Under the pieces are notes generated by a model that saw only the letters and a program-made list of their open reading frames with translations, did no database searches and had not been told where the DNA came from. Below are positions 57,921 to 59,252 of a stretch of DNA of 64,000 nt, one piece after another. Positions within the stretch are counted from its first letter, which is position 1; each line of letters starts with the position of its first letter. The DNA lies in assembly GCF_055900595.2 (NCBI RefSeq), contig NZ_CM148325.1, one strand, 5' to 3'. Both the position numbers and the translations under genes were made by a program.

Positions 57921-58658
57921 TTAAAGGTCTGCAAATTCCGCAATCGGTGCCATACCGCGAGATTCAAGGAAGTTCAGTAAGCGGCGTGGAGAAACATTCA
58001 AAATGCGCTCTGGCGGAAAATCTACCGCGTCGAGGATTTTAAGACACTCTTCAAATTCACCCATGGTAAACGCGGTGTGAGAATCCGAGCCTAATGCCAC
58101 CCAACCTCCAGCGTCACGTACCGCTGCGGCTACCGCACGACAGTTGTCTTCACTGCCCTTACGTGAGTGTAAAAATGAGGAATTATTGATTTCCAGCGCC
58201 ACCTGATGTTTCGCAGCTGCTTCAGCAACGGCTTTAACATCTATTTCATATTTCGGATTTCCGGGATGGCTTATTATATGCACATTGCCGCTGGCGATAG
58301 TGGCGATCATCGCTTGCGTATTGGTCGCTTTGTCATGCGGCGCAAACACCGGCTCATGAAAACCGGCAATAATCAGATCCAGCGAATCAAACATTTTGCC
58401 ACTGCAGTCAATTTCACCGTCAACATTTTTAATGTTAGCTTCGATGCCGCGCAGGATCCCAACCCCATCAACCACTCGCGGCCAGATACGCATGTTAATG
58501 AAGTGCCAGTGATGCGGCGCATCTTCCATATCTGGGCCATGATCGGTGATCGCAAAAAGTTTAATGCCCTTTTGTTTGGCCTGGGCAATGTAATCACTCA
58601 ATGTGCTATATGCATGCGTGCTGGCAACGGTATGCATATGAAGGTCGACGGGATACAT
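57921..58658 (-). CDS. ycdX: PHP-family zinc phosphatase YcdX
   Basis: 245 aa, [18 protein letters not shown] metal-binding N-terminus. Confidence 0.92.
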
Positions 58659-59128
58659 AACTCTCTCCTGTATTCAATTCCCGCCAAGGATAGCAGGAAA
58701 CCTGATGCTTTATTAGTAGCCGCGTGCGCGGTCGACTTGCCCGCAGACCCTCTCCCCTTTTTCGAGCTGGGCAATGGTGCGAGAAATGTACTCCACAGCT
58801 TCAGCGGGACGGGTAATCGCGGCGACATGTGGTGTTATCGCCACGCGTGGATGTTGCCAGAGCGGACTTTCCGGCGGTAAGGGTTCGCGATTAAAAACAT
58901 CCAGCATTGCACCTTTAACTTTGCCGCTATCCAGCGCCGCGAGCAGGTCATCTTCCACGACATGAACACCACGCGCCAGGTTGAGGAGATACGCGCCATC
59001 CGGTAATTTTTCGATTAATTGTTGATTAATAATGCCGACGGTTTCAGGGGTATTCGGTAACAAATTAATCAATACCCGGCATTGGCTCAGAAATGCAGAA
59101 AGTTCTTCCCGTCCGGCAAAGCTTTGCA

Positions 59129-59137
59129 CGCCAGGCC
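59129..59137. repeat. IS10 target-site duplication, left copy (CGCCAGGCC)
   Basis: Identical 9-mer directly abuts both IS10 ends. Confidence 0.9.
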
Positions 59138-59183
59138 CTGATGAATCCCCTAATGATTTTTATCAAAATCATTAAGTTAAGGT

Positions 59184-59252
59184 AGATACACATCTTGTCA
59201 TATGATCAAATGGTTTCGCCAAAAATCAATAATCAGACAACAAAATGTGCGA
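59184..59252 (-). ncRNA. IS10 RNA-OUT antisense RNA (position inferred from canonical IS10 layout)
   Basis: Canonical IS10 places pOUT transcription from about nt 115 outward to about nt 47; mapped onto this copy by offset from the outside end. Confidence 0.5.

Follow-up and report, generated by a model that had tools for sequence, protein, structure and literature searches.

We observed that a complete IS10 element, of the IS10-Left allele, is inserted in ghrA in the E. coli DNA analysed here (a stretch of 64,000 nucleotides, hereafter the window), and that its outside end, which carries the promoter pOUT, faces the 3' fragment of ghrA and the genes ycdX and ycdY behind it. The reading that we favour, with slightly better than even confidence, is a simple IS10 insertion in which ghrA is null and ycdX and ycdY would be expressed at a low, constitutive, pOUT-dependent level, uncoupled from the regulation of ghrA. 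An effect of the insertion on ycdX and ycdY expression is likely, and it would probably not be simple activation. We judge that the net level of ycdX and ycdY is more likely to lie below than above that of the wild type; this direction is a matter of judgement. The coordinates of all features are collected in Table 1.

Table 1. Features of the ghrA-ycdZ region in the window, and transcription start sites of the same genes in K-12 (K-12 positions are marked as such).
Feature	Position	Strand	Remarks
ycdZ (DUF1097 membrane protein)	56750-57241	-	own leaderless start site at 57241
ycdY (TorD-family chaperone of YcdX)	57343-57897	-	intact; ycdX-ycdY gap 23 nt
ycdX (zinc phosphatase, PHP domain)	57921-58658	-	intact
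ghrA-ycdX intergenic region, 54 nt	58659-58712	-	no intrinsic terminator predicted; no K-12 start site
ghrA 3' fragment	58713-59137	-	425 nt, codons 175-312 and stop; promoter and start codon lost
C-rich, G-poor stretch, 78 nt	58806-58883	-	32 C, 17 G; C/G 1.88; candidate Rho loading site
Target site duplication, left copy, 9 bp CGCCAGGCC	59129-59137		perfect direct repeat
Complete IS10 (IS10-Left allele)	59138-60466	+	1329 bp; outside end 59138, inside end 60466
A/U-rich hairpin, IS10 outside end	59151-59174	-	crossed by read-out transcripts; no U-run after it
RNA-OUT antisense RNA	59183-59252	-	Rfam RF00240, 97.3 bits, full length 1-70
IS10 transposase ORF, 402 aa	59245-60453	+	Pfam DDE_Tnp_1, E = 1.5e-24; ATG at IS bp 108
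Probable pOUT -10 hexamer TAAAAT	59260-59265	-	8-13 nt upstream of RNA-OUT 5' end
Target site duplication, right copy, 9 bp CGCCAGGCC	60467-60475		perfect direct repeat
ghrA 5' fragment, 174 native codons	60467-60989	-	plus 11 IS-derived codons; stop 60432-60434
ghrA promoter region and start site (61049)	61049-61099	-	intact; K-12 51-mer conserved exactly
K-12 start site, ghrA	K-12 1097049		45 reads (PMC3415461)
K-12 start site, ycdX			none listed (PMC3415461, few conditions)
K-12 start sites inside ycdX, assigned to ycdY	K-12 1098209, 1098749, 1098841		2-3 reads each (PMC3415461)
K-12 start site, ycdZ, leaderless	K-12 1099519		11 reads (PMC3415461)

The IS10 copy and the disrupted ghrA gene

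The locus is ordinary E. coli chromosome, in which the genes are arranged as csgDEFG, ycdZ, ycdY, ycdX, ghrA, serX. We compared this region of the window with other genomes: a few isolates from human stool, for example E200086, share 99.9-100% identity with it, while identity to most other E. coli was 95-99%. When the element and one copy of the flanking repeat were removed in silico, the resulting ghrA sequence was identical to the uninterrupted ghrA of E200086, and therefore we regard the insertion as a simple transposition event. The duplicated target, CGCCAGGCC, has the palindromic core GCCAGGC. It agrees at 4 of 6 positions with the IS10 target consensus NGCTNAGCN, which was reportedly described by Halling and Kleckner in 1982. 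The terminal inverted repeats of the element match at 17 of 23 positions, in inverted orientation.

Further, we compared the element with both IS10 copies of Tn10 on plasmid R100. There were no differences (0/1329) from IS10-Left, which adjoins gltS/jemA, and 15/1329 differences from IS10-Right, which adjoins tetD and is the copy usually studied. The positions at which IS10-Left and IS10-Right differ are bp 24, 25, 27, 47, 83, 107, 410, 425, 903, 1249, 1268, 1271, 1272, 1281 and 1300. The likeness to IS10-Left of Tn10 extends to all 1329 positions, the 9-bp duplication, the 402-aa DDE transposase, RNA-OUT and pOUT, but the copy in the window is solitary in the chromosome and lies outside any Tn10. 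By every feature that could be tested, namely length, ends, target duplication, transposase, identity and RNA-OUT, the element is an IS10. IS10 belongs to the IS4 family; in RefSeq, the element is annotated as 'ISVsa5 family'.

In historical descriptions, IS10-Left is the weakly active or defective copy of Tn10. We found 100% identical IS10-Left copies in many E. coli genomes, both in chromosomes and in plasmids, including 18 places in one DH5alpha assembly. The best match had at least 99% identity to the IS10-Left copy in 1387 records and 95-99% identity, the band that would include IS10-Right, in 911 records. This suggests that the spreading allele is the one that was called defective in the past. 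The copy of NEB5alpha was likewise named IS10L in a 2024 paper.

The insertion splits ghrA at codon 174/175 of 312 and interrupts the 2-Hacid_dh_C domain (NAD-binding/catalytic), which comprises residues 105-277. The truncated GhrA product has 185 aa, that is 174 native residues followed by a tail of 11 residues encoded by the IS10 inside end. Judging from the sequence, ghrA is certainly inactivated and constitutes a null allele. The knock-out of ghrA proposed in the first-pass annotation of this DNA is thus borne out by the split domain and by a 3' fragment that has neither promoter nor start codon. The ghrA gene of this strain should be called a pseudogene (IS10-disrupted). The reduction of glyoxylate/hydroxypyruvate can presumably be covered by GhrB.

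The window and E200086, the nearest relative, were also compared outside the insertion site. An IS200/IS605-type element of 719 bp is present in the window between pabC and fabF (3608-4326). A 99.9% identical IS200/IS605-type copy is present elsewhere in E200086, between yceK and mdoH, and the respective site of the window (approximately 44003-44012) is empty. On the 3' side of tRNA-Ser (serX), E200086 carries approximately 181 additional bp (comparison locus 6186-6560) compared with 61223-61420 of the window. They are bounded by a 120-bp direct repeat that consists of the 3' end of tRNA-Ser and its terminator, and downstream of serX the window has a single copy of this repeat unit. The additional stretch of E200086 resembles what is left of an integration site.

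Orientation of the outside end and the promoter pOUT

The ATG of the transposase is located at IS bp 108 when counted from 59138, and therefore the outside end is the left end of the element. We detected RNA-OUT on the minus strand with a score far above the cut-off of the Rfam model RF00240 (41 bits). The IS10-Right control scored 98.8 bits with the same model, and the RNA-OUT stem-loop folds as expected. Since the full-length match runs from 59252 to 59183 on the minus strand, we place the start of pOUT at 59252 (IS bp 115), which is the very position at which the first-pass annotation had ended its interval. Its claim that the outside end with pOUT faces leftward, on the same strand as the ghrA 3' fragment, ycdX, ycdY and ycdZ, agrees with RNA-OUT lying on the minus strand. 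The -10 hexamer TAAAAT of pOUT was read from the sequence, and its position was deduced from the start of RNA-OUT.

IS10-Right shows 3 differences inside RNA-OUT and 0 in the pOUT promoter region. As IS bp 108-409, which include the pOUT region, showed 0 differences from IS10-Right, in which pOUT was defined, the promoter is the same as the one studied experimentally. A consensus promoter scan of 57800-59400 found no promoter; this strict scan misses even pOUT and pIN, and therefore it is silent on these promoters. A hybrid promoter at the junction of IS10 with its target was considered and rejected, as no motif for it was found.

Read-out from pOUT into adjacent genes is established. In a passage of a review that cites Simons 1983 it is given as approximately 10% of PlacUV5 (PMC9330008), in line with the statement of the first-pass annotation that outward transcription from IS10 ends is known to activate genes next to them. 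The same review mentions activation of acrEF in Salmonella by IS10 as an example of read-out (PMC9330008), a case reportedly described by Olliver et al. in 2005. The main product of pOUT is RNA-OUT of 69-70 nt, the 3' end of which lies at IS10 nt 47 (PMC5006887).

The outward promoters of the inside end of IS10 are pIII and OUTIIp (2024 paper). They face away from pOUT, towards serX, and are antisense to the ghrA 5' fragment, into which they point. RNA initiated at the ghrA promoter enters IS10 by its inside end and is antisense to the whole transposase mRNA (60432-61049 on the minus strand, 59245-60453 on the plus strand). Such transcripts could damp expression of the transposase of this IS10 copy.

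Transcription of ycdX, ycdY and ycdZ with and without the ghrA promoter

Start sites of K-12 were taken from the table of Kim et al. 2012 (PMC3415461 supplement), which covers few conditions and in which the rows from ghrA to ycdZ are contiguous. As this table has a start site for ghrA and none for ycdX, the first-order effect of the insertion should be polarity on ycdX and ycdY. The genes ghrA, ycdX and ycdY are on the same strand, with gaps of 54 and 23 nt and with no intrinsic terminator predicted. Klebsiella has the four genes next to each other in this order (KPN_01056-01059, PMC3415461 supplement), and the wording 'ycdWXYZ operon' was used in one paper (PMC7046640). From the K-12 start sites together with this wording we infer co-transcription of ghrA and ycdX; the ghrA promoter is most probably the one on which ycdX depends. 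The supplements of Conway 2014, Yan 2018 and Adams 2021 contained no ghrA or ycdX entry and no full-length transcript evidence. The promoter scan identified the ghrA promoter as TTGCCA-16-TATGCT with an upstream TG. In the window it is 1.3 kb further from ycdX than without the insertion, and the intervening sequence is untranslated and antisense to the transposase gene.

The K-12 promoter 51-mer of ycdZ was kept exactly in the window (57291-57241, minus strand). Since ycdZ has its own start site, ycdX, ycdY and ycdZ are not one downstream unit. The first-pass annotation had suggested that expression of all three genes could be altered. We find this likely for ycdX and ycdY, which were cut off from the ghrA promoter, and we do not extend it to ycdZ, which has a start site of its own.

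The K-12 start site of ycdZ coincides with the A of its ATG, and the mRNA is apparently leaderless. In ycdY, codon 49 differs between the window (position 57751) and E200086; the change is non-synonymous (Ile49 here and Thr49 in E200086) and is the sole difference from E200086 across 56700-59137.

Further, we followed the path from pOUT to ycdX. The distance from the start of pOUT at 59252 to the ATG of ycdX is 594 nt (115 nt of IS10, 425 nt of the ghrA 3' fragment and the spacer of 54 nt), and 479 nt separate the end of IS10 from the ycdX start codon. Between 59252 and 57800, the minus strand contains no predicted intrinsic terminator. The first-pass annotation had delimited the spacer between ghrA and ycdX correctly (58659-58712), and had pointed to a terminator in it as the observation that would speak against outward transcription; no intrinsic one was predicted there. 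The spacer can form a hairpin without a U-run, and its fold (z = -1.5) is no better than that of shuffled sequence. The A/U hairpin at 59151-59174 was rejected as a terminator, as the U-run is absent.

The reading frames that leave IS10 towards the ghrA 3' fragment are closed by stop codons. The sole long in-frame ORF of this fragment begins with GTG at 59129 and has a weak Shine-Dalgarno sequence (-3.1 kcal/mol), while that of ycdX is the strongest on the path (-7.4 kcal/mol). Rho classically acts on RNA that is untranslated and rich in C. We noted a C-rich, G-poor stretch within the fragment; among 78-nt stretches of the 64-kb window, 6% have a C/G ratio of at least 1.67 and 2.1% of at least 2.0. 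This candidate Rho site is defined by composition only, from which Rho-dependent termination is not reliably predictable. As the fragment is poorly translated and contains this stretch, Rho-dependent loss of pOUT transcripts is plausible. Wang and Roth are said to have reported in 1988 that a silent hisD was activated by Tn10 only when the insertion site was close by, unless Rho was defective. This work, together with that of Ciampi et al. from 1982, is said to have dealt with how Rho acts on transcripts that read out of Tn10.

According to the reading that we favour, the insertion would be polar on ycdX, and on that share of ycdY expression which depends on it, through loss of the ghrA promoter. 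Most of the pOUT output would be RNA-OUT of 69-70 nt with its 3' end still within IS10. The lesser part would cross the outside end into the ghrA 3' fragment, 425 nt that are poorly translated. Some of these transcripts would probably be lost there by Rho-dependent termination, and the surviving ones would reach the strong ribosome-binding site of ycdX. Thanks to its own start site, ycdZ would remain largely unaffected. Upstream of ycdX, pOUT would be at best a substitute for the ghrA promoter.

A less probable reading, which we still take seriously, is that there is no useful read-out at all. Practically all pOUT transcripts would end as RNA-OUT or be stopped by Rho within the untranslated ghrA 3' fragment, ycdX would be silenced by polarity, and the transcription of ycdY and ycdZ would be limited to start sites of their own, weak or independent ones. 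The position of the RNA-OUT 3' end at nt 47, the 479 nt beyond the IS10 end with their weak translation signals and C-rich, G-poor stretch, the K-12 table without a ycdX start site, and the behaviour reported for Tn10 at hisD would all be consistent with it. However, the review passage cited above (PMC9330008) documents that pOUT transcription reaches neighbouring DNA, the path has no predicted intrinsic terminator, and the Rho site is a compositional guess.

Net activation, in which pOUT read-out would exceed the ghrA promoter in most conditions and ycdX and ycdY would be expressed constitutively above the wild-type level, is unlikely in our opinion. The strength of read-out given in the review passage (approximately 10% of PlacUV5) and its acrEF example (PMC9330008) argue for it, as do the correct orientation and strand and the strong ribosome-binding site of ycdX. 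It is opposed by the distance of 594 nt with a poorly translated leader, by the ghrA promoter being a clearly detected K-12 start site (45 reads), and by the lack of any sign of selection, as the junction was absent from all 5,426 complete E. coli genomes searched.

It is improbable that little has changed apart from the loss of GhrA, either because transcripts from the ghrA promoter traverse IS10 in antisense or because ycdX has an unmapped promoter. No intrinsic terminator was predicted on the minus strand of IS10, and the ghrA-ycdX spacer contains a weak extended -10-like motif, TGcTATCCT (58695-58687), which could give ycdX some independent transcription. Yet such transcripts would remain untranslated for 1.3 kb once past the stop codon at 60432, which should expose them to Rho, and the K-12 table has no start site between ghrA and ycdX. 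Moreover, insertions of IS10 and Tn10 are classically polar.

Spread of the junction and relation to known insertions

We wanted to see whether the insertion occurs elsewhere. No place spanning both sides of the IS10-ghrA junction was found in 5,426 complete E. coli genomes. The junction 37-mer had no match in GTDB species-representative genomes and JGI metagenomes, and no protein identical to the 185-aa fusion of GhrA and IS10 was found by an exact look-up. A look-up of the 138-aa ORF of the ghrA 3' fragment returned one Logan assembly contig, from run SRR27886137. This contig begins within IS10, 30 nt from the end of the element, and matches the window with 100% identity along 4455 bp, and therefore it probably comes from the same strain. 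Two further matches of the 138-aa ORF were set aside, as they are without the IS10 end.

The orientation of a single insertion has a prior of 50%, so the observed arrangement is not beyond chance, and nothing points to a lineage-wide, selected event. It is very improbable that the insertion was an adaptive rewiring next to the curli (csg) locus, with GhrA lost, the swarming-associated zinc phosphatase YcdX and its chaperone YcdY placed under the constitutive pOUT of IS10-Left, and motility or biofilm behaviour changed in the lineage.

The arrangement can be compared with two known systems. It resembles cases of pOUT read-out by Tn10 and IS10 in that the promoter is the same, the gene in front of the outside end has the same orientation as pOUT and no intrinsic terminator was predicted between the two. 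Read-out of this kind from Tn10/IS10, with activation of the adjacent genes, was reportedly described by Ciampi, Schmid and Roth in 1982. To our knowledge, in the documented cases of activation by pOUT the IS is close to the activated gene or impaired Rho is needed, whereas here the start codon of ycdX is 594 nt from the transcription start and lies behind a poorly translated fragment. It also resembles a polar IS insertion in an operon, as the promoter-proximal gene of a same-strand cluster was hit, the gap to the next gene is 54 nt, and the sole start site mapped upstream of ycdX in K-12 is that of the ghrA promoter. It differs from such an insertion in that co-transcription of ghrA and ycdX is something we infer here, and in that ycdZ has its own start site.

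In summary, the event is ordinary and already known in kind, and contains nothing new in kind; if any detail is mildly notable, it is the presence of the IS10-Left allele. The principle of pOUT read-out has been textbook knowledge since the 1980s, and the insertion may be seen as a potential instance of this long-known effect. For users of the strain who are concerned with ycdX or ycdY expression or with its swarming phenotype, the point to consider is that both genes have lost their connection to the ghrA promoter and lie behind pOUT. The locus could also serve as a small natural test of the range of pOUT read-out through an untranslated gene fragment.
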